This document shows, piece by piece, positions 50,405-64,000 of a DNA stretch of 64,000 nucleotides. Source of the stretch: Candidatus Bathyarchaeota archaeon (lineage in GTDB: Archaea > Thermoproteota > Bathyarchaeia > Bathyarchaeales > Bathycorpusculaceae); NCBI GenBank assembly GCA_963832745.1, contig CAWHVC010000004.1, positions 64,001-128,000 on the forward strand. Direction: 5' to 3'. The notes beneath the pieces were generated by a model. The model made no database searches, was not told the DNA's origin, and saw nothing but the letters and a program-made list of their open reading frames with translations. Within the stretch, counting starts at the first letter, position 1; the number at the start of each line of letters is the position of its first letter. Both the position numbers and the translations under genes were made by a program.

Positions 50405-51580
50405 GTGTATAAAGGTCATTACATCATATCTATTATTCCTGCACGTGGGGGAAGTAAAGGTGTTCCGCGCAAGAATATCAAAGAGTTATGTGGCAAACCT
50501 TTGGTTGCTCATTCGATAATACACTCTTTGCACTCTCAGTATGTTGATAAGACTATTGTTTCGACTGAGGATCTAGAAATTGCCGATGTTAGCCTAAAAT
50601 ATGGTGCTGAGGTAATTTTACGACCGCAGGAACTGGCTACCGATGAAACTCCGACTGAACCCGTTATGATCAATGTTTTATCTCAACTCGCTAAGGATAA
50701 TATTGTTCCTGATTATGTTGTTCTGTTACAACCTACTTCACCCATCCGGTTGTCTGCTGACATTGATCAAGCAATTAGAAAAATTATTGATGATAAAGCT
50801 GATTCATTGATTAGTGTCCGTGAAAACAGTTCCTTCTTCTGGTCTAAGGAAAACGAACCTTTAAATTATGACTATCAAAAAAGGCCACGCAGGCAAGATA
50901 AGCAATGGGAACTAATTGAGAATGGTTCGATATACATAACCAAAAGAGAGATTTTAGTTAATGAAAAGAACCGGATAGGTGGGCGTATATTAACTTACCT
51001 TATGCCTGAATGGGCTTCATTTGAGATAGATACTGCCTTTGACTTTGATTTGATAGAATTTATCGCACGAAAATATTTTTCTAACTCTATTACTGGACTT
51101 GAAGGCATAAAGCTTGCTATTTTTGATGTTGATGGTGTTTTTACCGATGGCTCTGTTTATTTGGGTGAAAATGGTCAAGAAATGTTAAAGTTTTCTAGAG
51201 TAGATGGCAAGGGCATTGAATTGTTACAGAGAACAGCTATCGAAATTGCTGTAATAACATCGGAAGATAACGCTATAGTTAGAGAAAGAATGAAGAAATT
51301 GAGTATTAATCGTGTTTATACTGGTATAAAAGATAAAAAATGCATTTATGACTTATTAAAAAAAGAACTAAACATAACAGATGAGGCAGTTGCCTACTGT
51401 GGTGATGATACAGGTGATTTAGTTCCAATTAAAAATGCAGGATTCACTGCTTGCCCTCGTAATGCCGTTGATGTAATAAAGCATGAATGCATGTACGTTT
51501 CATCCCTTACCGGTGGTTCAGGTTTTGTTCGGGAAATATGTGACTTAATCATTGCTTCTAAGGAGAAATCTAAAGAATGA
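50405..51580 (+). CDS. neuA: Acylneuraminate cytidylyltransferase fused to a KdsC-like HAD phosphatase
   Basis: IPARGGSKGVPRKN, LQPTSP.R, ENGSIY, EIDT..D; then FDVDGVFTDG, GDDTGD, GG.GFVRE. Confidence 0.9.
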   Translation: MYKGHYIISIIPARGGSKGVPRKNIKELCGKPLVAHSIIHSLHSQYVDKTIVSTEDLEIADVSLKYGAEVILRPQELATDETPTEPVMINVLSQLAKDNIVPDYVVLLQPTSPIRLSADIDQAIRKIIDDKADSLISVRENSSFFWSKENEPLNYDYQKRPRRQDKQWELIENGSIYITKREILVNEKNRIGGRILTYLMPEWASFEIDTAFDFDLIEFIARKYFSNSITGLEGIKLAIFDVDGVFTDGSVYLGENGQEMLKFSRVDGKGIELLQRTAIEIAVITSEDNAIVRERMKKLSINRVYTGIKDKKCIYDLLKKELNITDEAVAYCGDDTGDLVPIKNAGFTACPRNAVDVIKHECMYVSSLTGGSGFVREICDLIIASKEKSKE

Positions 51581-52452
51581 ATTTAAAAATAGGAAACAAA
51601 GAAATTTCTAATAATAGTCCAATTTTTTTCATAGCTGAAATTGGCATAAATCATAATGGTGACATTGAAAAAGCAAAAGAGCTAATTGATTTAGCTAGTT
51701 TCTGTAAATGCGACGCTGTTAAGTTTCAAAAAAGAACCCCTGAACTTTGCGTCCCCGAAAAACAAAGAGACACCCTTAAGGACACTCCATGGGGCAAAAT
51801 GACTTATTTTGACTATAAAAGAAAAATCGAATTTGAGGAAGAAGAATATAAAATAATTGATGATTACTGTAAAAGGAAAGACATAGTTTGGTTTGCTTCA
51901 CCTTGGGATACGCCCAGTGTCGATTTTTTGGAAAAGTTTGATGTACCTTGTTATAAAATACCTTCAGCAATGATTACAAACAAGGCTCTTTTGCAAAAGA
52001 TTAAAGATACCGATAAACCGATTTTTCTATCTACGGGAATGAGCACTGTAGATGAAATTGACAATGCGATAAACGCTCTTAGCGGTCAACCCATAGTTTT
52101 GATGCATTGTAATTCTTCGTATCCTTCTGATGCTTCAGAACTAAATTTGCGAGTGATCGAACTGTATCGGCAAAAATACTCCGATTGTATTATTGGCTAT
52201 AGTGGTCATGAAAAAGGTTACGCTGCATCCCTCGTTGCTGCAGTCTTAGGTGCAAAAGTTGTCGAACGACATATTACCCTTGATAGAACAATGTGGGGGA
52301 GTGACCAAGCAGCAAGTTTAGAACTAGATGGGTTACGGCGGTTAGTTAGAGATTTATCTTCTCTTGATATGTGGTTGGGTGATGGTGAGAAAAAAATTTA
52401 CCCTTCTGAACTTCCGATAAGAGCAAAACTAAGACCGTCCAATGATACTTAA
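51577..52452 (+). CDS. neuB: N-acetylneuraminate/nonulosonate synthase family protein lacking the C-terminal antifreeze-like domain
   Basis: IAEIGINHNGD, AVKFQKR, STGMS, HCNSSYP, GYSGHE, ERHITLD. Confidence 0.92.
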   Translation: MNLKIGNKEISNNSPIFFIAEIGINHNGDIEKAKELIDLASFCKCDAVKFQKRTPELCVPEKQRDTLKDTPWGKMTYFDYKRKIEFEEEEYKIIDDYCKRKDIVWFASPWDTPSVDFLEKFDVPCYKIPSAMITNKALLQKIKDTDKPIFLSTGMSTVDEIDNAINALSGQPIVLMHCNSSYPSDASELNLRVIELYRQKYSDCIIGYSGHEKGYAASLVAAVLGAKVVERHITLDRTMWGSDQAASLELDGLRRLVRDLSSLDMWLGDGEKKIYPSELPIRAKLRPSNDT

Positions 52453-52719
52453 TTCTTTTCTACTTCCTTACTTTGTTGGTATCAGTTATTACTTTAGGAT
52501 TATTTTGGTAAGCGAAGAGTAAATAGTTAAGATGGATTATTTTTTCGACGCTTCAGGCAGCAACTATTCTTCTTTTTTAAGGGCTTTTTAGCCTTTTATT
52601 TACTTTATGATGCGAGGTCTTAGTTGATTTGATTTTGCTTCAAAAAACAACCCACAATAAAGCAATTGAAAAAACAAAAAATGGCTTGTTTTACTGCTTT
52701 TTTCAGATACTTATTTGTG

Positions 52720-52736
52720 TGTGCATAATGTGCACA
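52720..52736. promoter_or_regulatory. Palindromic operator-like site TGTGCA-N5-TGCACA
   Basis: TGTGCATAATGTGCACA; related TGTGCATAAAATGCAAC at 53066-53082. Confidence 0.45.
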
Positions 52737-52771
52737 AATTGCTTTATGTGCATATAACATTTCAATTGATT

Positions 52772-52914
52772 ATGGCGACTCAGAGGCCAACAGTAAAAGC
52801 GAGAACACATCACGGCACCAGTTCCTTGGATATATCTATACTGCCGATGTAATCAAAGAGTGCAACATACACTCGGGCGATATTTTTGAGGTCACAACCA
52901 TCAACGCGAGCTAA
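52772..52914 (+). pseudogene. AbrB/MazE-like small regulator, frameshifted or degenerate
   Basis: MATQRPTVKARTHHGTSSLDISI then, in a shifted frame, ADVIKECNIHSGDIFEVT. Confidence 0.45.
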
Positions 52915-53057
52915 AATCGTTACAAAGAGTTTACTCTCAACCCCGTGTATATCTGCATTAAAATGGGTTGGCATCTGGTGACTTAGTCAATTCGTACCTT
53001 ATCTTTTCATATTTTGGATTTATTGCAGTGAAATTGCACAAATTATAAATTCTTTAT

Positions 53058-53925
53058 ATGTATAATGTGCATAAAATGCAACCGACTTTAACAAAGCCTG
53101 AGCGATCTCCTCAATCGTTTGGTAGTTGTGGTTTGGGTGATGTTGGTGTTTTGGTTGGTTTGGGTTTGTCTGTTAGGCAGGCTAAGGTTTATTTGGCGTT
53201 GCTTAGGGCGGGTGTGGCTAAGGTGCAGTTGGTTTCTGATTTGTCAGGTGTGCATCGTCAGGAAGTGTATCGTGTGCTTGATGGGTTGCAGCATATGGGG
53301 CTTGTTCAAAGAAAAGTCAGTAATCCTGCAACGTTTAGTGTTACACCGTTAAGTGAGGCGGTTAAGTTGTTGCTTGGCCAGAGGGCAAGTGAGCTTGATT
53401 TGGTGGCTAGGAGGGCTGAGTTGTTGGCTAAGCGTTTAGGTAAGGGGGTTGGTTTGTCGGGGTTGGAGTTTTCGCTTAGGCCGTGTTTTGGTACTATTGT
53501 TGAGGCTGATCGGGGTAGGCATTTTCGGGTTGCACTTAAGGGTGTGCATGAAGTTTTTGAGGCAGCTACGAGTTGGCGTCGTTTTAAACAGTTAAGCATA
53601 CATTTTGAAGCTCAACTGCTCAGTGCAATGCGGCGGGGCGCATCTGTTCATGTGGTAACCGAAAAACCCATCTGGGCAAACGCTTCCAAAATGGATCTCT
53701 GCTGCCCAAACCAAGTATCCATGTTTTGAACTACGCACCCTGCCAGCTCCGCCTGCGGCTGCAGTTACCATTTTCGACCACACAAAAGCAGCGATAGCCT
53801 ACAACCCCAACATCAGCTTAACAAAGGGGCCTGAACTTTGGACAGAAAACCCTACAATGACCACTTTGGCACAAGCATACTTCAAAACAGTCTGGATGCA
53901 ACCACTTGCTTTAGAAGAAAGTTGA
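53058..53925 (+). CDS. TrmB family transcriptional regulator; frameshift near 53675
   Basis: LGLSVRQAKVYLALL..SGVHRQEVYRVL..L...GLV; shifted frame continues VTIFD..A...LWTENP...LAQAYF..W to TGA 53925. Confidence 0.85.
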
Positions 53926-54172
53926 ACAATAAAAAATTGTTAGCACTACTGCTTCTAAGAAACAAGTTGACTAACACGGCTGATTATACCCTTTTTAGCA
54001 AAACAAAACCAATATTGCCAAGGCATTCATCTTGTCATTAAAAACATTTCAAGTTATAAGTCGTTTAACCTTAGACTTTCTATCTAAAATTTTTTATTTT
54101 AACCATAAAACTTTGTAATTAAAACTTAAATATCCATCAAATGCATAAGCATTTTTACATTCAGGGGATTGG

Positions 54173-54295
54173 GTGCCAAATTTGACAAGAATTGACAAAC
54201 TTCCGCTGTTAATAAAAATATTGGAAGAGCTAGAAAGATATGGCTTTGATGCGGTTATAGATTATGAGAATTGCAAGGTCCTAATACTTGATTAA
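54173..54295 (+). CDS. Possible 40-aa micro-protein MPNLTRIDKLPLLIKILEELERYGFDAVIDYENCKVLILD
   Basis: GTG start preceded by AGGGGA; protein-like composition; below the ORF-track cutoff. Confidence 0.4.
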   Translation: MPNLTRIDKLPLLIKILEELERYGFDAVIDYENCKVLILD

Positions 54296-54332
54296 ATGAA
54301 ACGTGCTCTTCTTGCCAAGTAAATGCCAAGGG

Positions 54333-54725
54333 CTAGTAAGCCGAAGAATCAAATATTTTGGAAGTAAAAAGTTCAATTTCTTTTTTGGATTCAAGAATGT
54401 TAGTAAGCAAAAGTTTGCCCTTGGGTGTCAAAGAGTAAACAGTCTTTGCGTTTTCATCCAGTTTCCTTTCTATAAACTGATCCTCTTCAAGAGAATGCAA
54501 AACACGATAAATTTCACTTACATTAAGTCTGATACCTTGCTTTTGTAAAATAATTTTTAGAATATCATAACCCGTTACTGGTTTCTTCTTGTTTAAAATC
54601 ATTAGACTTACGATGTTCAAATAATTTTTTAGAATTTTAGTCTGTATTTCTTTTGATTTTTTAGAGGCACCCTGTTTTGAAGATGTCGTTGTTTCAAGAC
54701 ATTTTTGATCAAATATGAGCGTCAA
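54333..54725 (-). CDS. PadR family transcriptional regulator
   Basis: GYDIL..I..K.GI.L..SEIY..LHSLE...I........YSLTPKG. Confidence 0.85.
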   Translation of the reverse strand: MTLIFDQKCLETTTSSKQGASKKSKEIQTKILKNYLNIVSLMILNKKKPVTGYDILKIILQKQGIRLNVSEIYRVLHSLEEDQFIERKLDENAKTVYSLTPKGKLLLTNILESKKEIELFTSKIFDSSAY

Positions 54726-55500
54726 GCTTCTCTATTACCCCCAGTAAGTCCATCACAAAGGGATGCTGCCCTTTTTCGATAGATAAGATACAGGTGCGTT
54801 TTGTTTGAAGAACATCACAGTAACAGGGAACTGCACCTATAACCGGTCGCTTGAAGGTTGACTGTGCTTGGGTTATCGCATCTGTTTTCCAATCACTTGG
54901 TAAATCAATGGCTGAAGGAAAAACTTTGTTGAGCAATATGACAGCTTTCTTTTCTATCGCATCATAAAGATCAACTAGGAGACTTTTAGTGCCTTGAGTG
55001 TCCAATGAATCAAGCGTTGTAACAATTATTGATAAATCTGAACTTATTGCAGCATTCACCGATGTATACTGGAAACCGGGACTGGTATCCAATATGCAAT
55101 AATCAACATTCATTTCATTGAATAATTGCGACCGTAGAGCGAGAAGTCTTTTAACTGCTGAAACTTCCCAAGCTCGACTCTTCTCAGTAATACTGCGAAT
55201 AGCCCCACCGTCAGGGTCTGAAAAACCAACCAATAATCTGCCACTTAATTTATACCTCGAGGACAAATCGACCGTTGCAACCTCAGCAGGACATCGACCG
55301 TCAAAATAAGAATTCAAGTAACAATCAATAGGTAACGCTTCCCCCCGTGAAAACACGCCTGCTAAACTTGGCGCTCTAAAATCAAGGTCAAGAAGTGCAA
55401 CATTCAAGCCTTTTTTTGCCATCAATGCAGCTAGATTTGTTGACAGAAGTGTTTTACCTGTCCCGCCCCTAGAAGAGTGAATCGAGATACACTTGCCCAT
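54709..55500 (-). CDS. MinD/ParA family ATPase
   Basis: SSRGGTGKT deviant Walker A, LDLDFRAPSL, LDTSPG, LNK. Confidence 0.9.
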   Translation of the reverse strand: MGKCISIHSSRGGTGKTLLSTNLAALMAKKGLNVALLDLDFRAPSLAGVFSRGEALPIDCYLNSYFDGRCPAEVATVDLSSRYKLSGRLLVGFSDPDGGAIRSITEKSRAWEVSAVKRLLALRSQLFNEMNVDYCILDTSPGFQYTSVNAAISSDLSIIVTTLDSLDTQGTKSLLVDLYDAIEKKAVILLNKVFPSAIDLPSDWKTDAITQAQSTFKRPVIGAVPCYCDVLQTKRTCILSIEKGQHPFVMDLLGVIEKLDAHI

Positions 55501-55502
55501 TA

Positions 55503-55934
55503 TTATTCCTCCTTGGATGCTTCAATGTAAAAATAAACTTCATGACCAACTCTTTTTTTCTTAAAAAAACCCAGACGGGCAAGCTCATTTGCAGCGGCGC
55601 TTTCTACAGCACGCATTCTGTTAGTTTCTTTCGCTAAATCATCAGCCGTAGCCTGCTCAAGCTTGTACAAAACCAACGCTGTTTTTCTTAGAGCCGCAGG
55701 TAATGACAGAAGCGCCATTGAATCAGGCTGGATTTCTATTTTTCCTTTTTTCCCTTGTAATCCAGTGGGCATTCTTTGCAAGATGGTCTCATTAATTTCT
55801 AGAATTCGTTCATTTATTTTTATTAATTTGTTTAATCTATCGTTAATCTGGTTAAGTACACTCACTGTTTGAAAAAGTGGTTGTTCCGACGTTTGTTCTG
55901 AACTCGAATCTTTTGTTTCAGGTGTGATTTCCAT
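55503..55934 (-). CDS. Coiled-coil plus winged-helix DNA-binding protein
   Basis: ATADDLAKETNRMRAVESAAANELARLGFFKKKRVGHEVYF; N-terminal heptad repeats. Confidence 0.75.
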   Translation of the reverse strand: MEITPETKDSSSEQTSEQPLFQTVSVLNQINDRLNKLIKINERILEINETILQRMPTGLQGKKGKIEIQPDSMALLSLPAALRKTALVLYKLEQATADDLAKETNRMRAVESAAANELARLGFFKKKRVGHEVYFYIEASKEE

Positions 55935-56048
55935 GTGTCAATACTCCAGATATGAGTGTATTTCTGTATATGCAAAAATACACTTTTAAATTTTGCCTTT
56001 CTCTGGAAAAGCTAAAAAACAATTACACAACAATGGATAACAGAGAAT

Positions 56049-57035
56049 ATGAACGCTCGCGAGCAACTTCAAAACATTCTTGAAACTTATGGCGCACACA
56101 ATGCATATCAGGCAACAAAAACCCTAACAACCTTAGACGTTCAAGAAAATCTCAAACCAATTTTTAATTACATATCAAAAACATGGCGCGACCCTTTAAC
56201 ACCGGCAATGATGAATCTATCCTGTAAAGTTGTTGGTGGCGAACCTGAAGAAACTCAAAAATACGCAATAGCTGTAAGCCTGCTAAACCTGAGCATGAGA
56301 ACCTGGGATGACGTTATAGACAAAACAACCGTAAGAAGCCTTAAAAAAACCACAGTTGGGGAAATCGGAGAGAAAAACTCCATCATCATTGGCGGGTTAA
56401 TATCTGCTAAAGCATTTCTTACCCTAAACCAAACAAGAATAAACTTAAAAAAAGAAGAAGCAATAGCAAAAATCTTATGGACCTATTTATCCACGATGTC
56501 AGAAGCCGAGATTATTGACAATGGCATTAAACCAGAATTTTATTTACCAAAAAATAAACTGCAAAAAATCAAGACTGAAGCAATAGGCTTAGAAACATGC
56601 CTTAGCATCGGAGGCATTGTTGGCAATGGCTCTGAAGAAGAAATAAACGCTTTAGGGAACTATGGTAGAATTCTTGGAACACTACTTGAATTATGGAAGG
56701 ATCTGCTAGTTTCTTTAAACCTGACAATGGAATTAGAACAAAAAATCCGGAACAAAAAATTGCCCTATTTTATCTTAAGAACCAAAAAATACAGTCTTGA
56801 AACACGAGAACTGCTCAAAAAAATGTCAAAAAACGATATTGAAGGCCAGGATATAGGAATCTTGGTTGAAAATGTTCTAAAGAATAACACAAAAATAATT
56901 AAAACTAAAGTTGAATCATTAACAACCCGTGGAATAAATCTCCTTGAACCATTTAGAGGCTGTGAAGAAAAAGAGAATCTGAAAAAAATTCTAAGCATTC
57001 AACCAAAAATATTTGATGAATGCTTAAACGGTTGA
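56049..57035 (+). CDS. Class I isoprenoid synthase/polyprenyl synthetase-fold protein with a degenerate second Asp motif (ComQ-like)
   Basis: WDDVIDKT..R first motif, KIKTEA, LGNYGRILG; second motif reads LWKDLLV instead of DDxxD. Confidence 0.8.
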   Translation: MNAREQLQNILETYGAHNAYQATKTLTTLDVQENLKPIFNYISKTWRDPLTPAMMNLSCKVVGGEPEETQKYAIAVSLLNLSMRTWDDVIDKTTVRSLKKTTVGEIGEKNSIIIGGLISAKAFLTLNQTRINLKKEEAIAKILWTYLSTMSEAEIIDNGIKPEFYLPKNKLQKIKTEAIGLETCLSIGGIVGNGSEEEINALGNYGRILGTLLELWKDLLVSLNLTMELEQKIRNKKLPYFILRTKKYSLETRELLKKMSKNDIEGQDIGILVENVLKNNTKIIKTKVESLTTRGINLLEPFRGCEEKENLKKILSIQPKIFDECLNG

Positions 57036-57043
57036 AATTTCTG

Positions 57044-57262
57044 TTAATATTCCTCAGGCCATTTTTGAGGACTTACCGACATAATGACGGAAACAACTGA
57101 GCTTATGTGAGCGCTGGGTATTTTGGCTTTTCTGCAAACTTTAACTAACGAATTTTTGTCGTTTTTGTTTACTGCAGCTTGAATTTCGCTTGAAAACTCT
57201 GGCTTCGATAATGTTTGAAGACTACTGGCAACGCCACTTATTTTTGTATTTAAATTTATCAT
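57044..57262 (-). CDS. 72-aa peptide, candidate RiPP/pheromone precursor
   Basis: SD-like GGTGG upstream; helical Nif11-like leader; C-terminal SPQKWPEEY. Confidence 0.65.
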   Translation of the reverse strand: MINLNTKISGVASSLQTLSKPEFSSEIQAAVNKNDKNSLVKVCRKAKIPSAHISSVVSVIMSVSPQKWPEEY

Positions 57263-57356
57263 TTAAACCCACCATATTTTAAATCATTTGATTCTGTTTT
57301 TAAGCTTTCTTAACAATTTAAAATACTTTAAATGCTCTTAGACGCTATCTCTAAAG

Positions 57357-58583
57357 ATGTGCCATAACATGCTTGGCCTTCCTGAAATTAGGACAAAAAT
57401 GAAGTTTTTTAACAGCAATTTTCTTGTAAACGTTTTCTTGTTCGCAAGCTTCTTCAGCTTTTATTACATTTTTTCACTCCATGTTATCCCTCAAGTTTTT
57501 GCAGCAAGCATTAGTTTGCCATTACAAGCTCTGTTTAGCTTTACCATAATTATTGCTTTACTTATGATTAGTCATTCTTTAATAAAAGCCAGCGAAAAAG
57601 AGCGCATAATAATTCCTTGTTTAAGCATTTCTATCTCCCTTTTAGGTTTATTTACTATTCCATTATTTGCCGTAAAATTGGCTTGTGTTTTGGTTATAGG
57701 TGTTGCATTTGCGGTGGGGCAACTTTCGGCTTATACATATTTTTGGCGTACGACTAAAGCTGAAGAAAGGGGGCGTGTGGGTGGACTAATCAGTTTCATA
57801 GGCTTGCCGATTTACTTTGTTGCCAGTAATCTTTTGGCTGCTAACTTTGGTCTTATTGAAAAAATTACTCTTTGTTTGTTTCTTTGCGGCTTAGCAGTTG
57901 TCTCTATTTCCTTCACAAAACCCCTGATTCTTCAGGAGAATAAAAATAAAGGTGGATACTATCCTGAGAAGCGAACAATCCTCTTATACTCAATCCCCTG
58001 GATCATTTTTACGTTCGTAAACGCCACCTTTGCTAAAAACATTTCTGAAATAACTTCAACACTAATTCTGCCCTCATTGTATAACCAGCTAATACTTATC
58101 CAAACATTTGCAGCATTAATAGGCGCTTTAAGCGGCGGGTTCATAGCTGATTATTTTGGAAGAAGGTTGACTTTGGTCTTAAGTGTCACATTATATGGCG
58201 TGAGCATGACATTACATGGAATTACCAGTAGTGAAGTTTTAAACTTTTTTGGATTTGCCGCTGAGGGTTTAAGCTGGGGCATTATTCTGACATTATTCGT
58301 GTTTGTGATTTGGGGTGATCTCGCCAATAAGGTAAATTGTTCAAGAATCTTTGCAGTCGGGTTATCAATTTTTTATTTTTTTACCGGTATTGGAATTTCA
58401 AACTTCTTTGTTATTGATTCATTAACAACTAATACGCTAATTAGTTGTTTGCTTATCTTTTTATCAAATATTCCGATTGTGCTTGCTCCCGAATTATTGC
58501 CTTCTGACACAAAAGAGAAAATGAGACTAAAAAAATACATGAAAAACGTAAAACAAATCGTTAAAGACACAGAAAAAAAATAG
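57357..58583 (+). CDS. MFS transporter
   Basis: About 12 TM helices, EERGRVGG, GGFIADYFGRR motif A. Confidence 0.85.
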   Translation: MCHNMLGLPEIRTKMKFFNSNFLVNVFLFASFFSFYYIFSLHVIPQVFAASISLPLQALFSFTIIIALLMISHSLIKASEKERIIIPCLSISISLLGLFTIPLFAVKLACVLVIGVAFAVGQLSAYTYFWRTTKAEERGRVGGLISFIGLPIYFVASNLLAANFGLIEKITLCLFLCGLAVVSISFTKPLILQENKNKGGYYPEKRTILLYSIPWIIFTFVNATFAKNISEITSTLILPSLYNQLILIQTFAALIGALSGGFIADYFGRRLTLVLSVTLYGVSMTLHGITSSEVLNFFGFAAEGLSWGIILTLFVFVIWGDLANKVNCSRIFAVGLSIFYFFTGIGISNFFVIDSLTTNTLISCLLIFLSNIPIVLAPELLPSDTKEKMRLKKYMKNVKQIVKDTEKK

Positions 58584-58591
58584 TTGACTTA

Positions 58592-59515
58592 CTATTTCAG
58601 CCTGAACAGGGAAACCTGCTTGATACTTTCCAGTCTACATATCCATTGCAAAGCACGTTCTACGCCCAAAGCAAAACCTGCCTGAGGTACACTACCAAAC
58701 CTTCTCAGATCCAAGTACCACTTTTGAGCTTCAGGGCTAATCTCAAGCTCTTTCAACTTATTTATTACGACATTTTTTTGTCTTAACATTTCTCCGCCGC
58801 TGGCAATTTCACCATAACCACCCGGAGCTATTAGGTCACAAGACAAGGTTAATTCTGGTTTGCGAAAAACAGGTTTATGAAAATAGTTTTCGCCATTTAG
58901 TGGAAACTCGGTGATGAAAAAAGGTTTTGTAAACGTCTTGCTAAGTTCACTTTCTTGAGACCAATCAATAGTCTCGCCCCAGAAAACCTTGAATCCTAAT
59001 TTTTGCAGTCTATTAATTGCTTCATCATATGTTAATCGACAAAAGGGTGGCTTAACTAGTTTTAACGTTTCAACCAAACTAGAGCCATTTAAAAATAATA
59101 ACTCTTCTGAAACATCTTCCAATAACTTGGAACATACAAAAGAAATCATTTTCTCCTGAAAATCCATAATTTTTTCAAAAGTAAAATTTAACGCAGACAC
59201 TTCCACTCGCCAAAACTCAATCAAGTGCCTATCCGTGTCATGTTCCGGTCGAAAAGTTGGTGATACAGTATAAATTTTATTAAACATCTCAAGGAAGCGG
59301 TCTGAGTAGGGCTGTAACCTTCCACTTAAATCCATTTTTCTATTTCCATAAGAAACCTCAAAACTAGCCTTTCCCTCAATAATTGGCACTAACAAGGGCG
59401 CTTGAACTTCTGTGAATTCTTGAGCTCCTAACCAGAATCTTGTAGATTCTAACATTTTTGCTCTTACTTTCAAAATTGCTCGATAGCGCTTCACGTCAGC
59501 GTAATCCAGTGTCAT
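58592..59515 (-). CDS. Class IIb aaRS paralogue (AsnRS/AspRS catalytic domain only, no anticodon-binding OB fold)
   Basis: FTEVQAP motif 1, PTFRPE..RHLIEF motif 2, DLIAPGGYGEIASGG, GFALGVER motif 3; only 307 aa. Confidence 0.85.
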   Translation of the reverse strand: MTLDYADVKRYRAILKVRAKMLESTRFWLGAQEFTEVQAPLLVPIIEGKASFEVSYGNRKMDLSGRLQPYSDRFLEMFNKIYTVSPTFRPEHDTDRHLIEFWRVEVSALNFTFEKIMDFQEKMISFVCSKLLEDVSEELLFLNGSSLVETLKLVKPPFCRLTYDEAINRLQKLGFKVFWGETIDWSQESELSKTFTKPFFITEFPLNGENYFHKPVFRKPELTLSCDLIAPGGYGEIASGGEMLRQKNVVINKLKELEISPEAQKWYLDLRRFGSVPQAGFALGVERALQWICRLESIKQVSLFRLK

Positions 59516-59622
59516 AAATAACTGTTGTCAAAAATCGTTTTTAAGTATTAACAAAAATAAAAATTGAACATTAAAAAAATTTAAATTCTTAAAGTTGTAA
59601 TTGCAAATAAGGGCTCGATTGA

Positions 59623-59793
59623 TTGGTCACCTGTCCTAATTGTGGAAAAGCCATTGAAAAACCAGAGAAAATAGTGAGCAACTCGTTTTTTGTTATTGCC
59701 GTTTATTCATGTGACCGCTGTGGAAACAAGTTTAAGGTATCCGTTAAATTCTTTTTTGTAAATTATCACTTGGTTTTCAAGTTCAATAACTGA
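59623..59793 (+). CDS. Small zinc-ribbon protein (Cren7-like shape); absent from the ORF track
   Basis: TTG start; VTCPNCGKAIEKPEKIVSNSFFVIAVYSCDRCGNKFKV. Confidence 0.6.
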   Translation: MVTCPNCGKAIEKPEKIVSNSFFVIAVYSCDRCGNKFKVSVKFFFVNYHLVFKFNN

Positions 59794-59979
59794 CAACCCA
59801 AAATTTTTTGTGATCGAGTTTATTTTTCTTCGAAATTCCTCATCCATGTTTGCATATATTTTGATTTTAAATCCTTCATTGACTGAATCATCGGAGCCAA
59901 ATATTGAAAATATCTCAGGAAGAACATCCGAGCGCAACAAAATCTCTTTTAGACAAGTTACGGCTTCGTTTCTCTTCAT
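59707..59979 (-). CDS. Small hypothetical protein, paralogue of 9587..9829
   Basis: MKRNEAVTCLKEI..GFKIKI..INSI..FGLSV..VIIYK. Confidence 0.55.
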   Translation of the reverse strand: MKRNEAVTCLKEILLRSDVLPEIFSIFGSDDSVNEGFKIKIYANMDEEFRRKINSITKNFGLSVIELENQVIIYKKEFNGYLKLVSTAVT

Positions 59980-60146
59980 TCAATTTTTCACATACCACGC
60001 TTTTGGTTCTTTAGCTTTTAAAATTTAGTAACAAAATTAACTATTAAAAAAAATATAACTTGCCTTTTGTTGACTGCAAAATTAGGCTAATCGAGCTACC
60101 GCATCCCGTGGAAACTGGGAATGAGCAGATTTATCTGGAAGTGTGT

Positions 60147-60159
60147 ATACATTATGTAT
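60147..60159. promoter_or_regulatory. Palindromic operator upstream of vapBC
   Basis: ATACAT-T-ATGTAT, 12 nt before ATG 60171. Confidence 0.5.
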
Positions 60160-60170
60160 GTGTGGACTGC

Positions 60171-60398
60171 ATGGCAAGACAAATTTCAGTCTCAAACGAA
60201 GTCTATGAACTCCTTTTGGAACGAAAAGGCAAAAAAAGCTTTTCACAGGTAATTAAAGAAAACCTTTGCATCAAAGAGGAAAAAGTTGACATCATGAGTC
60301 TAGCAGGCATCTTAAAAGATGACAAGGAAGAGCTTGAACGATTAAAGCAGCAAATAGCCGCTGAAAGAGAGGCAAATTACGGAAGGACATTTGAGTGA
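60171..60398 (+). CDS. vapB: VapB-type antitoxin (DUF217-like)
   Basis: RQISVSNEVYELL..K.KKSFSQVI; coupled to the PIN gene. Confidence 0.85.
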   Translation: MARQISVSNEVYELLLERKGKKSFSQVIKENLCIKEEKVDIMSLAGILKDDKEELERLKQQIAAEREANYGRTFE

Positions 60399-60770
60399 CT
60401 TTTCTTGATACAAGCGTCATAATAGATTTCTTGGCAGGAGACCAAAAAATTGTTGCATTAATACAAGAAATCTTAAAAAAAGAAGAGGTGAAAACCACAA
60501 CAATAACCGAGTACGAGCTGCTTAGGCATAAGACTAAAATAAAAAAACAAGCAGCTCAACGATTCCTCTCCGGAGCAACCGTCTGCTCTTTCGACCGAAC
60601 TGCCGCCCAAAAAGCTGCTGCTCTTTTTGAAGAACTCAGAGAAGCTGGAAAAATGATTAACGAAAACAGATTTGCTTATTGCAGGCATTTCCCTTGCTCA
60701 CGATGAGGTTTTACTAACAAGAGACCAAAAACTATCCAATGTTAACAAAGATAACATAAAAATGGTCTAA
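60395..60770 (+). CDS. vapC: VapC PIN-domain toxin; frameshift near 60667
   Basis: FLDTSVIIDFL, ITEYEL; shifted frame DLLIAGISL..LLTRD to TAA 60770. Confidence 0.88.
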
Positions 60771-60845
60771 TAATAATGTGCGCGGTTTGGCCGCTGGTGT
60801 GTTGGTCTACTATTTACTGAATCCCTGAAAAGCTCTATTGCGTTT

Positions 60846-61142
60846 TTAGTCTTTGCATTCTGCAATCTCTTGAGAGTTTTCCAACTCTTCCATAGATCTA
60901 GAGATTGTTACAACGTGCCCGACTGCTTGAACCATGCTAACTGGAATGCATATTGTGGAACTTCTAAATCGCTTCTTCATTCCAAAACTTTCAGCAGCAT
61001 CACCCGTAAGCTTAACGTTCAAGAATTTTATAACCCAAGTTTCGGCGTCAATTTTCGCGCCCTTTACTTCCCCAATAATACTTGCCCCAGAAGTTACTAC
61101 CTCTAAACCAATAATTTCTTCAAAATTTATCACATAAAACAC
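60846..61142 (-). CDS. PRC-barrel domain protein
   Basis: IIGLEVVTSGA.IIGEV....ID..TW.I..L.V; IPVSMVQAVGHVVTI. Confidence 0.85.
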   Translation of the reverse strand: MFYVINFEEIIGLEVVTSGASIIGEVKGAKIDAETWVIKFLNVKLTGDAAESFGMKKRFRSSTICIPVSMVQAVGHVVTISRSMEELENSQEIAECKD

Positions 61143-61539
61143 CTACATATAGATATGATTCGATTCAAAATATATTGTTTACCATTTTAGCACCAGTTAA
61201 CGGCGTAAATCAGCACTATTTTACTAAACGGATTAAAAGCTGAAGACAGCGTCCCCTGTATTCCTTGAGATAGAAAGAGGATTTAGAGGTCAAAGCGCTA
61301 CACTGATTCTTCAGAGTCTATGGGTAAATTATCCGAAGGTCAAGAGGAGTTAGGAACGATGAGAATTAGACGGGTGAGCTTGGTGTGTTGGTTGTAACCC
61401 GCCTTTGAGATTAGTAAATTACCTTCCTCACTCATCAAAAATCCCTATATTAGTTCTTACTGTTCTCTCTAGTTATAAGCTTTAATCACATTTGCTCACG
61501 AGTAATTAACCCTTAAAAAAGAAACGCATGGAGATTGGT

Positions 61540-61926
61540 TTACTCCCATACTGGGTCGGCTGCTGTATAGGTTACGCGCACTGAATCACTGGGAAATTCA
61601 ATGGCGATATTGATGTTTTTTGAGTTTTCTGCTGCAATGTCACCAAAAGAGATTATTTCTGTTTTTAGTGCCTGTTGATTGTCTGCGTTAAAGAACGTAA
61701 TTTCCACACTTACGTTTTTTGCATCTTTTTGTCCAAGGTTTTCTGCGGTGCCTTCCAACTGATAGGCTCCAGTTTGCATGTCATATCCGCCGCCAAAAGA
61801 TGTAGCAATTGAAGCGTCTAAGATTTGAGGGGTCTCTGTAGGGTTAAATACTGCTCCAAGCATTCCTGAAATTAAGGCTACACCAACAACCGATACAACA
61901 ATAACTGCAGAAACAACCGCAAGCAA
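61540..61926 (-). CDS. Membrane-anchored Ig-like (FxLYD-like) protein
   Basis: N-terminal TM helix; GTAENLG..DAKNVSVEITFFNAD. Confidence 0.55.
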   Translation of the reverse strand: MLAVVSAVIVVSVVGVALISGMLGAVFNPTETPQILDASIATSFGGGYDMQTGAYQLEGTAENLGQKDAKNVSVEITFFNADNQQALKTEIISFGDIAAENSKNINIAIEFPSDSVRVTYTAADPVWE

Positions 61927-62629
61927 TAATTATATGTGATTTTTGCATAAATCATAGCAGCCATATTCTCCACCTAATAAGCTTTTAAGCGTTAAAAGGA
62001 TAATATCATGGATTCTTTGAATTTTTTTAATTGCTCTTACTTTTTTGTATTAAAAAAATAAAGCATTCATTTGTTTATTTTAAAAGTAGCAAATCATTTT
62101 ACAAAAAATAGTTTTATCAAGAGGAGACGCCATTTTGGCAAGTGTTTTCACTACTTGAAGTTTAAGTCCCTTTGTTCCCTAAGATAGAGAAGGAAATTTA
62201 GGTGTTAAAATGTGTGGTTCTTTACTTAGAGACGGTGGGTGAATTGCCTGGGGGCAAGGGGGAGTCGGGAGCGATGTGCGTTGCCTTGTCCAGATATTGG
62301 AAGTTGACATAGGTTATAGGTTCGCTATGATTCAAGGAATCATAATATTACCGGTTTATGAGGTTTGTAGATGGAGGATTACAGTCACACGTAGTTATAT
62401 TATCGTGCCCGTTAATTCAATTATAAGAGAGGAAATTTTATGGTACACTGTCATGATATGAAATTAGGTCAGGTTTATTTCTGTGAAGAATGCGGACTCG
62501 AACTGAAAGTTGCTAAGAGCTGCACTGTGGACGGTAACCATCCAAAAGGAGTAACTTGTACTGTTTGCACTCATGTCTGCTGCGATAAAGACATGAAATT
62601 GAAAGCATAGTTAAGGATAGAAAAGAGTT

Positions 62630-63587: not shown

Positions 63588-64000
63588 ATGACCGAAAAGG
63601 ATGAATCCAAAGACAAAGAAAATTATGGATTGAACAGGGTTTTAGCTTTAACAGATGGCGTATTTGCCATAGCAGCTACACTGCTTGTTGTTGACTTGTT
63701 TGTTCCCACTCTTTCACCAGATGCAACATCCGCAGACCTATGGAATGCATTATCTGGCGAGTTTCACACATTCTTAGCTTACCTTCTAAGCTTTTTCATT
63801 CTTGGAGTTTGGTGGAACGCTCACCACAGACATTATAGTTTAATACGCAACTCAGATGCAAAGTTAAGATGGTTGAATCTTTTTCTTTTACTCTGGATTG
63901 GGTTGCTTCCGTTTTTTACTAAAATTTTAGCTGAGTATGGACCACTTCAATCGGCTGTTGCTCTTTACGCCTTAGACCAAGGAGCCGCAGGCCTGTGTGT
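63588..64000 (+). CDS. TMEM175 family (DUF1211) potassium channel, 3'-truncated by the window edge
   Basis: RVLALTDGVFAIAATLLVVDL, AYLLSFFILGVWWNAHHR, WLNLFFLL...LPF.T. Confidence 0.9.
   Translation, partial: MTEKDESKDKENYGLNRVLALTDGVFAIAATLLVVDLFVPTLSPDATSADLWNALSGEFHTFLAYLLSFFILGVWWNAHHRHYSLIRNSDAKLRWLNLFLLLWIGLLPFFTKILAEYGPLQSAVALYALDQGAAGLC

Follow-up and report, generated by a model that had tools for sequence, protein, structure and literature searches.

A conserved six-gene module of Bathyarchaeia as a candidate archaeal peptide-prenylating system of the ComQ/ComX kind

Analysis of a 64,000-nt stretch of genomic DNA from a Candidatus Bathyarchaeota archaeon (GenBank assembly GCA_963832745.1, contig CAWHVC010000004.1, positions 64,001 to 128,000 of the forward strand; hereafter the window) revealed a module of six genes in conserved order, encoding a ParA/MinD-like ATPase, a winged helix-turn-helix (wHTH) protein, an enzyme resembling trans-isoprenyl diphosphate synthases (IDS), a protein of 72 amino acids (aa), a transporter of the major facilitator superfamily (MFS), and a paralogue of the catalytic core of asparaginyl-tRNA synthetase (AsnRS). 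We see about an even chance that the enzyme prenylates the small protein encoded beside it at its C-terminal Trp (or Tyr), in the manner of ComQ, StheQ, and PalQ, and the module is a good candidate for an archaeal counterpart, the first of its kind, to bacterial peptide prenylation by ComQ/ComX. A first-pass annotation of this DNA had described four adjacent genes (56049-59515) as a cluster for a prenylated signalling peptide. All four open reading frames (ORFs) were found again with their coordinates and motifs, using the ORF list and Pfam, and are real genes, but the conserved unit turned out to be larger, as it also comprises the genes for the wHTH protein (55503-55934) and the ParA/MinD-like ATPase (54709-55500). 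The observation was confirmed, and the interpretation drawn from it is overall partly supported. The features of this part of the window are as follows:

54333-54725, minus strand: PadR-family winged-helix regulator (PF03551 PadR, 42.9 bits), overlapping the 3' end of the ParA-like gene
54709-55500, minus strand: ParA/MinD-family P-loop ATPase (Pfam matches to AAA_31, CbiA, and ParA; Walker A SSRGGTGKT)
55503-55934, minus strand: wHTH protein, 143 aa, with a C-terminal winged-helix-like region, divergent from the enzyme gene
55935-56048: spacer of 114 nt separating the divergently transcribed wHTH and enzyme genes, presumably a promoter region for both
56049-57035, plus strand: trans-IDS-like enzyme, 328 aa (PF00348, 40.8 bits)
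57044-57262, minus strand: small protein, 72 aa, convergent with the enzyme gene, candidate substrate of the enzyme
57263-57356: spacer of 94 nt separating the divergently transcribed small-protein and MFS genes, presumably a promoter region for both
57357-58583, plus strand: MFS-type transporter, 408 aa, of a cluster-specific subfamily, divergent from the small-protein gene, proposed exporter
58592-59515, minus strand: AsnRS catalytic-core paralogue, 307 aa, convergent with the MFS gene, proposed adenylate-forming ligase

The stop codons of the enzyme gene and the 72-aa gene lie 8 nt apart (57036-57043). For comparison, about 100 loci from Bathyarchaeia were used, namely 18 from a set with one genome per GTDB species, all of them from metagenome-assembled genomes of Bathyarchaeia, 80 from metagenomes, and two from genome searches. 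Gene presence was counted in loci whose contig extends far enough, and revealed the MFS gene in 61/61, the AsnRS-like gene in 52/52, the small-protein gene in 76/77, the wHTH gene in 82/84, and the gene for the ParA/MinD-like ATPase in 58/60 loci. The sole locus without the small protein is a degraded one (L041), and two others (L119 and L126) carry neither the wHTH nor the ParA gene. The neighbourhood expected by the first-pass annotation, with a small ORF, an MFS gene, and an AsnRS-like gene kept beside enzyme homologues, was thereby borne out. A gene for PadR, the last of the wHTH-ParA-PadR run, gave a tblastn match in 21/100 related loci and is therefore only sometimes part of the module. 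The six-gene order is kept down to an enzyme identity of 37% and recurs far beyond chance. At the level of the class, the module is accessory (about 12 of 401 genomes): among 401 sampled genomes, the small protein was detected in 12 (E≤1e-15) and an enzyme of this type (a-type; ≥337 bits) in 11, and the small gene adjoins the enzyme gene in 11/11 such genomes.

The IDS-like enzyme and its small partner protein

The enzyme was assigned to the polyprenyl_synt family, with a PF00348 score of 40.8 bits against a cut-off of 27. Its first aspartate-rich motif (FARM), ...RTWDDVIDKT..., is intact (D87-D88-x-x-D91), and the second (SARM) is represented by ...LELWKDLLVSL..., a pseudo-SARM of the form K217-D218-L-L-V followed by S222, N224, T226, and E228. 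Residues were counted over 66 non-redundant orthologues, each paired with a small protein. D87 and D88 were found in 65/66 and D91 in 66/66, D218 is kept in 64/66, and the fifth position of the second motif is not Asp. Position 217 is Lys in 48 and Asn in seven orthologues, Arg, Gln, Glu, or His in the rest, and never Asp. Downstream of D218, N224 and T226 are invariant (66/66 each), and S222 and E228 occur in 58/66 and 62/66, respectively. The combination of an intact first and a degenerate second motif, reported earlier for the window alone, proved to be family-wide, with D218 as the one retained Asp of the second motif.

The host genome carries three PF00348 genes, i.e., a canonical geranylgeranyl diphosphate (GGPP) synthase (218 bits), a divergent copy on contig 5 (72 bits), and the cluster enzyme (41 bits). 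The canonical synthase (G000:C3:783805) has intact DDIED and DDILD motifs and adjoins a gene similar to that for isopentenyl diphosphate (IPP) isomerase. Compared with it, the cluster enzyme has other residues in place of the SARM, the region-I motif 'GKRWRP', the 'KT' pair, and the Lys-rich region at the C-terminus. Region I, 'KT', and the Lys-rich regions of synthases serve the binding of IPP and diphosphate. All 11 NCBIfam models for IDS scored far under their cut-offs, the best being IdsA with 66.8 versus 468 bits. Since the substrate-binding regions are replaced and the synthase scores stay that far below the cut-offs, chain elongation by the enzyme seems unlikely. Phylogenetic analysis placed the enzyme family, which lacks the SARM and other chain-elongating features, in a clade of its own on a long separate branch apart from the canonical GGPP synthase of the host, as would be expected under the first-pass interpretation. 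Among solved sequences, the family profile is nearest to the archaeal GGPP synthase 1wy0 (E 4.7e-27), ahead of Ord1 (9v4g, E 2.8e-14), and in this comparison with solved structures the enzyme therefore appears to be an independent archaeal offshoot that may act like ComQ, outside the ComQ family.

The 72-aa protein ends in ...SPQKWPEEY (register Q66-K67-W68-P69-E-E-Y72), and its only Trp, W68, is the fifth residue from the C-terminus, just as first described. Searches revealed 479 homologues at E≤0.01, nearly all of 72-75 aa, and the ratio of non-synonymous to synonymous substitution rates (dN/dS) had a median of 0.19 over 1003 pairs, with 983 of these below 0.5, indicating purifying selection. 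The small ORF is a genuine gene; an antisense or chance ORF is ruled out by dN/dS and the 479 homologues. AlphaFold2, run with 18 sequences, predicted four helices (residues 3-18, 21-32, 36-45, and 50-63) at a mean predicted local distance difference test (pLDDT) of 80.5, followed by a tail of low confidence with values of 66 and 51 for the last blocks and a floppy end of nine residues. Among the best 120 homologues, 119 have KWP and one has KYP at this place, exactly three variable residues follow the Pro in 116, and the last residue is usually hydrophobic. All 18 a-type proteins that were aligned have K67. The aromatic residue of the tail is Trp in 58 and Tyr in eight of the 66 paired loci, never Phe or another residue; Trp and Tyr are both nucleophilic aromatics. 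The tails of more remote members finish with ...WP, ...WPPxxWW, or ...W, and a search across the phylum with the remote 'WPP' small proteins as queries gave matches in 3/401 genomes only and revealed no gene context for this group.

The predicted fold of the small protein gave no convincing match to a solved structure. Foldseek against PDB gave no match at E≤0.001, and VIA-align against 48,161 chains gave a best Z of 6.4 (C-terminal helices of HAT1), a value not above the noise of helical models. At rank 27, the Nif11 leader MppE (9zn4) reached a Z of 4.2 with a root-mean-square deviation of 2.5 Å over 54 residues, again at noise level for helical models. A search of the ESM Atlas with the small protein gave no usable match, Pfam at E≤10 gave scattered chance matches only for all 18 small proteins, the 72-aa protein had no Pfam or NCBIfam match at E≤0.01, and none of the 18 members matched the Nif11 or NHLP leader models at E≤10. 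Apart from the tail, Cys43 (57134-57136; helix 3, ...V-C-R-K-A-K-I-P) is common to a-type, b-type (see below), and remote small proteins. Only two representatives (P0186 and P0207) deviate, with Phe or Met in its place, and its role may be structural or that of a further functional site. An acyl-carrier-like role in connection with the AsnRS paralogue was considered and rejected, as there is no conserved Ser and Cys43 is exchanged in these two representatives.

Enzyme gene and small ORF are convergent in 78/78 complete pairs, and in 77 of these the distance between the 3' ends is -41 to +19 nt. Ten loci revealed an enzyme gene without a small ORF, and in these the contig stops no more than 189 nt past the enzyme stop codon. 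All 58 enzymes with a Trp-type partner keep D218, which is lost only in two sister sequences of one clade (L029 and L087), both with Tyr-type partners. One genome, G347, carries genes for the AsnRS-like protein, the MFS transporter, a 75-aa small protein (KYP), wHTH, ParA, and PadR without an enzyme gene (L049:5110-9231, contig 9); the 248-bp gap at the enzyme position gave no trace of the enzyme in tblastn. The degraded locus L041 (L041:6001-8612) harbors a split enzyme gene, a truncated small ORF, and a fragmentary MFS gene next to intact AsnRS-like, ParA-like, and wHTH genes. This joint decay of enzyme and Trp, as seen in the D218 loss, G347, and L041, was counted as a point that may speak for a pairing through prenylation. 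In addition, residue 182 of the enzyme is Gly in 5/8 sequences with Tyr-type and 1/58 with Trp-type partners, and on the tree three of five W/Y changes coincide with a change at this position; the sign test is not significant (p 0.25-1), so that a covariation between E or G at residue 182 and W or Y in the tail is suggestive only.

Complex prediction for enzyme and small protein resulted in a median score of 0.51 (runs of 0.00, 0.52, and 0.51), compared with 0.00 for the best of three controls. At least 14% of contacts are common to the runs, and the pLDDT of the partner is at least 63. In calibration, the mark was reached by 58/80 solved complexes and 2/110 mismatched pairs; at scores ≤0.60 stood only 7/80 solved complexes together with both passing mismatches, and the calibration is rough, custom alignments having been used. 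The prediction thus gives weak support for binding of the small protein by the enzyme. One predicted protein of 220 aa (P0190) fuses residues 1 to ~175 of an a-type enzyme with the ~45 C-terminal residues of a small protein, although the genes for these two are normally convergent. The sequence probably stems from a chimeric assembly or from a rearrangement at 'EAV(D/E)K', a short stretch present in both.

Paralogous clusters and accessory genes

Three genomes carry a paralogous b-type cluster, i.e., L048 (L048:5147-10607, G030 contig 3), L051, and L135. The gene order is trypsin-like peptidase, IDS-like enzyme, convergent small protein, MFS transporter, ParA-like ATPase, and TIR-TRASH protein, with all six genes in L048 and L051, the ParA homologue included, and the MFS, small-protein, and enzyme genes in the ~3 kb of L135. 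The b-type small proteins are longer (86-97 aa) and have a central motif in common with the a-type (...D/N-K..F.K.C...(I/V)P). Their tails, ...DDPGWFLK, ...NNNPWMTGA, and ...FGDIIW (the Trp-terminal one of L135), are divergent, each with a Trp within the last five residues. None of the three has a Lys before the Trp, and the two loci with enough flank (L048 and L051) have no AsnRS-like gene. On the enzyme tree, a-type (support of 99 in the Shimodaira-Hasegawa-like approximate likelihood ratio test, SH-aLRT) and b-type (100) enzymes are sisters with a weak support of 80. As the set recurs in two old lineages, enzyme, Trp-tailed small protein, MFS transporter, and ParA-like ATPase seem to work together, and we regard this as the best argument for a functional unit. 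PADLOC gave weak matches for the b-type peptidase and the TIR protein, and a link of the b-type cluster to a conflict system is possible.

A further group of SARM-less IDS-like genes, here called family 2 (HDDIID; second motif AEYVD), stands apart from both types on the tree and is located directly upstream of a homologous MFS gene, e.g., in L046:7104-9614 (contig 5 of the host genome, about 431 kb) and in L011-L023. Of the 12 loci holding a family-2 enzyme ORF, 11 have it beside the homologous MFS gene without a small ORF, any ORFs in the vicinity being due to chance. At E≤1e-30, relatives of the enzyme, a- and b-types included, were detected in 123/401 genomes of the class. The family-2 MFS gene of the host genome is split into ORFs of 281 aa and 130 aa, followed by a radical-SAM gene. 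Between the family-2 IDS-like gene and the MFS gene lies a long, conserved hairpin (L046:8158-8226), which in L002, L021, L013, L019, and L020 gives rise to short 'ORFs' of nearly the same sequence on both strands; for this hairpin Rfam gave only weak matches to microRNA-precursor hairpins, and no tRNA was found.

The AsnRS-core paralogue matched PF00152 (tRNA-synt_2) with 153.9 bits and kept class II motifs 2 and 3 (FRPE..RHLIEFWRVE and GFALGVER), which are conserved in 17 family members. A PDB sequence search aligned the 307-aa protein to residues 130-425 of the 434-aa Pyrococcus AsnRS 1x54_A (E 2e-55). Because the alignment covers only this part, the N-terminal anticodon-binding part is absent and the protein is a bare catalytic core, in agreement with the anticodon-less aminoacyl-tRNA synthetase (aaRS) paralogue of the first-pass annotation. 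The NCBIfam models for AsnRS (214.5 bits, cut-off 414), AsnA (at best 167 bits, cut-off 368), and EpmA (41.5 bits) all stayed under their cut-offs. Compared with AsnRS and the aspartyl-tRNA synthetase of the host, the amino-acid pocket is altered: the 'QS.QLY' loop has become 'G-L-Q-P-Y', and Met mostly stands in place of the Arg of 'GGxR'. The host genome encodes full-length class IIb enzymes on contigs 3 and 5, among others a separate 433-aa AsnRS copy, and two short paralogues. Within the genus, the short paralogue (open frame of 306-343 aa) was found in 7/61 genomes, all of them cluster-bearing; the other AsnRS matches in the 61 genomes are full-length proteins of 397-468 aa at 32-36% identity and one open frame of 257 aa (G424). 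The features of the core and pocket suggest that the paralogue is an active ligase of the adenylate-forming kind that has changed its substrate and belongs to the cluster. Archaeal asparagine synthetase A was tried as an identity and rejected in view of the AsnA score and the restriction to cluster-bearing genomes.

The transporter of the window scored 31.2 bits with MFS_1, just under the cut-off of 33.4, and its b-type homologue 60.2 bits. Identity to the b-type and family-2 copies is 27-34% (b-type, 27% over 368 residues), and translation may actually begin some codons after 57357. For the ParA-like ATPase, the nearest solved chains were Mrp, MinD, and Soj, which match around the P-loop only. 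The wHTH protein revealed no Pfam match and a sub-threshold NCBIfam match to the Sta1 family, with weaker paralogues in 53/61 genomes of the genus; it is probably a DNA-binding regulator or an adaptor working with the ATPase. PADLOC gave no match for the a-type enzyme, small protein, MFS, AsnRS-like, and wHTH proteins and a weak P-loop match for the ParA-like proteins, and so did not support the module as a known defence system.

Just downstream of the cluster, the window encodes a VapBC pair of a VapB-like antitoxin and a PIN-domain protein (60060-60706). A homologue of TMEM175-type potassium channels (63588-63998) runs off the window end. Upstream lies a gene similar to sialic acid synthases of the NeuB family (51577-52452), and other small genes also occur in the neighbourhood of the cluster. 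An Rfam scan of 52000-62000 gave nothing at E≤0.1. The G+C content is 0.34-0.38 between 38000 and 62000 (one 2-kb bin with 0.41), compared with mostly 0.40-0.45 in the first 36 kb, and this lower value fits a location of the cluster in a variable or acquired region.

Proposed function and rival explanations

For the prenylation of the small protein, we propose that the enzyme would bind an allylic prenyl diphosphate via Mg2+ at D87, D88, and D91 and, having lost the IPP site, would not be able to elongate chains. It would instead dock the folded four-helix domain of the 72-aa protein, take the flexible C-terminal tail into its active site, and transfer the prenyl group to the electron-rich aromatic residue of K-[W/Y]-P-x-x-x (W68), the lone Asp of the pseudo-SARM (D218) and neighbouring polar residues positioning the acceptor. 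The dedicated MFS transporter, whose gene would share a divergent promoter region with the small-protein gene, might then handle the protein in its lipidated form or a short lipopeptide derived from the tail by cleavage. The AsnRS-core paralogue may add a further modification as an adenylate-forming ligase, and the ParA/MinD-like ATPase and the wHTH protein (with PadR in some loci) may regulate or localise the system. We infer every catalytic step, the acceptor residue, export, and the biological role, for which signalling is one possibility.

Several points weigh against this proposal. No finding points to signalling, as the clusters offer no kinase or response regulator, and wHTH, ParA, and PadR are only neighbours. 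The secretion, the second tailoring ligase, and the readout by adjacent regulators put forward in the first-pass annotation are likewise possibilities at most. Export through the MFS transporter would need a protease, because a folded 72-aa protein cannot pass such a transporter, and the a-type cluster does not encode one. The small protein is conserved along its entire length (mean column identity of 67%), more so than the enzyme, which would fit a protein with a function of its own equally well as a leader domain. Conservation of the Trp, to which the first-pass annotation had tied its reading, holds for the best homologues (119/120) but not throughout, since eight of the 66 non-redundant pairs have Tyr, with at least five W/Y interchanges on the enzyme tree, and since KYP was found in nine of the 40 sequences fetched (of 41 matches) as representatives at 50% identity. 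According to passages of a 2026 review (PMC13290415), the characterised trans-IDS-like peptide prenyltransferases all act on Trp, and PalQ rejects other nucleophilic residues. ComQ requires N or G at the first position of its pseudo-SARM and is crippled by an N-to-D exchange, as stated in part of the ComQ study (PMC5331326), whereas this residue is Lys in 48/66 of the archaeal enzymes. A Gln located one turn upstream in StheQ (Q212) and in Ord1 is Glu in 56/66 here, at position 214, though the register is indirect. Furthermore, the peptide gene follows on the same strand in comQX and stheQX, unlike the convergent archaeal genes. The loss of the enzyme in G347 counts on this side as well, since the other genes of the module were kept there and can thus outlast it. 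Because the widespread family 2 pairs with the same kind of MFS transporter and has no small ORF, the ancestral acceptor may not have been a protein. Finally, a complex score of 0.51 lies in a range where passes are more often wrong than right unless the interaction is likely beforehand.

Some of these points could also be accounted for by a small-molecule prenyltransferase or terpene-synthase-like enzyme, whose lipid or terpenoid product would be moved by the MFS transporter, with the small protein as an accessory (a regulator, chaperone, immunity protein, or scaffold) and the AsnRS-core ligase building or modifying the small-molecule acceptor. The enzyme-MFS pair is the most widely conserved part, occurring in family 2 without a small ORF, MFS transporters typically carry small molecules, and the small protein is kept without the enzyme in G347. 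The nearly invariant region after D218 (S222, N224, T226, E228) could be a new second metal or substrate site, and Ord1, which prenylates a free indole substrate, provides a precedent among the solved relatives listed above. What this explanation leaves aside is the Trp/Tyr-tailed protein beside the 3' end of the enzyme gene in 78/78 pairs as well as in the b-type, the loss of D218 or of the enzyme only with Tyr-type tails, and the fixed distance of the motif from the C-terminus, and we therefore regard it as rather doubtful. If the IDS-like protein were instead non-catalytic, it might serve as a prenyl-diphosphate-binding or structural subunit, a sensor or scaffold together with the small protein and perhaps the MFS or ParA-like protein, similar to the non-catalytic small subunits by which heteromeric prenyl synthases are regulated. 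The loss of the SARM, of the 'KT' Lys, and of other substrate-binding residues, the very low scores with curated IDS models (e.g., 66.8 versus 468), and the full-length conservation of the small protein are consistent with such a role, and the complex prediction (0.51; best control 0.00) weakly supports binding as such. Invariant or nearly invariant FARM Asp residues, D218, N224, and T226 (64-66/66) would, however, be expected of a working active site rather than of a scaffold, and known non-catalytic subunits have lost both Asp-rich motifs, which renders this possibility improbable.

An ordinary chain-elongating synthase for GGPP or farnesyl diphosphate, surrounded by unrelated housekeeping genes and an AsnRS-like asparagine synthetase A, is suggested by database entries that name homologues 'geranylgeranyl pyrophosphate synthase', by the PF00348 score above the cut-off, and by the 167 bits with AsnA models. 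We consider it barely credible, as the host already has a canonical GGPP synthase (218 bits, intact DDIED/DDILD), the second Asp-rich motif is absent family-wide, the module is accessory (about 12/401), the AsnRS-like gene is limited to cluster-bearing genomes (7/61) and has a changed pocket, and the six-gene order is conserved to 37% enzyme identity. Going beyond prenylation, the tail could be doubly modified, with W68 prenylated by the descendant of an archaeal GGPP synthase, and with an amino acid or another carboxylic acid adenylated by the AsnRS-core paralogue and joined to K67, as EpmA does on EF-P. The product would be a lipidated, branched C-terminal peptide, released and exported through the MFS transporter as a signal between cells or an antagonist, the variable last three residues acting as a 'pherotype' specificity code. 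Taken jointly, these assumptions are a long shot; their hints, i.e., the invariance of K67 in the 18 a-type proteins and the presence of the AsnRS-like gene in 52/52 loci as opposed to the b-type, amount to one evolutionary contrast.

Bathyarchaeia are abundant, hardly cultivated sediment archaea, and we know of nothing on their cell-cell chemistry. If the small protein is indeed prenylated, peptide prenylation would have evolved independently from an archaeal GGPP synthase, possibly with a Tyr-accepting variant, the catalytic core of an aaRS would have acquired a new job, and new enzymes for site-specific C-terminal protein lipidation would become available. A doubly modified tail would in addition be the first archaeal prenylated product similar to peptides made on ribosomes and modified after translation (RiPPs) and the first case of RiPP tailoring by a tRNA-independent aaRS paralogue.

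Comparison with known systems

Prenylation of peptides or proteins by enzymes of the IDS fold is described in passages of the 2026 review (PMC13290415) for a few bacterial systems, namely ComQ, StheQ, PalQ, and ChrPC, and these passages name no archaeal case. A full-text literature search of limited coverage revealed no archaeal ComQ-like system in print. Compared with canonical archaeal GGPP synthases (1wy0 and the copy of the host), the enzyme is of the same fold family and has the same FARM, no SARM, no 'KT', a changed region I, and an accessory distribution.

ComQ and ComX of Bacillus subtilis share with the archaeal pair the IDS fold, the intact FARM, a pseudo-SARM with the second Asp only, and a short product of the neighbouring gene with a Trp a few residues from the C-terminus. 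According to part of the ComQ study (PMC5331326), the FARM of ComQ is likewise intact and its pseudo-SARM has retained the second Asp alone, which is essential, so that the resemblance pointed out in the first-pass annotation holds (D218 in 64/66). Unlike ComQ, the archaeal enzyme seems to be independently derived, its nearest solved sequences being archaeal GGPP synthases. The module also differs from ComQXPA by the additional conserved MFS transporter, AsnRS-core ligase, ParA-like ATPase, and wHTH protein, and by Tyr variants. ComX is highly variable; the archaeal partner is instead conserved over its full length. No ComP-like kinase or ComA-like response regulator was found among the ORFs of 51.5-64 kb or in the conserved set of related loci, as the first-pass annotation had also noted for the surroundings of the cluster.

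EpmA/PoxA (GenX) and the archaeal AsnRS-derived asparagine synthetase A are class IIb cores without an anticodon-binding domain that perform non-translational ligation. The AsnRS paralogue resembles them in consisting of the core only and in its weak to moderate NCBIfam matches, and a Lys (K67) stands beside the aromatic residue in every a-type tail. It differs in missing the cut-offs, in its changed pocket residues, and in being found only with the cluster.

StheX of Sphaerobacter thermophilus comes close to the archaeal small protein in size and build. Sections of the StheQ preprint (10.64898/2026.08.29.745113) describe that StheQ binds metal at the FARM only, the pseudo-SARM helping to place the acceptor Trp, and that StheX comprises 69 aa, with residues 1-59 ordered, a disordered tail of residues 60-69, and the Trp at position -2. 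Based on these sections, the archaeal protein is similarly built, with 72 aa, residues 3-63 predicted to be ordered, a nine-residue tail, and the Trp at -5. The pseudo-SARM of StheQ reads N215-D216-x-x-D219 with Q212 upstream, compared with K217-D218-x-x-V and E214 in the archaeal enzyme. Activity has been shown for StheQ, and the archaeal enzyme is a candidate prenyltransferase.

As far as excerpts of the PalQ study show (PMC10853753), PalX of Paenibacillus alvei possesses an NHLP domain that is folded and conserved, and its C-terminal Trp is conserved as well. The archaeal small protein, unlike PalX, matches no NHLP or Nif11 model. PalQ is described there as needing the Trp at the very C-terminus, with extensions abolishing activity, while three residues follow the Pro in 116/120 archaeal homologues, and the PalQ cluster, unlike the archaeal one, includes a histidine kinase. 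Nevertheless, both systems combine a trans-IDS-like enzyme with a partner that has a conserved leader-like domain and a C-terminal Trp, which in one b-type small protein (L135) is the last residue as in PalX, and, judging from the same excerpts, both were found by the same logic of genome context and predicted complex.

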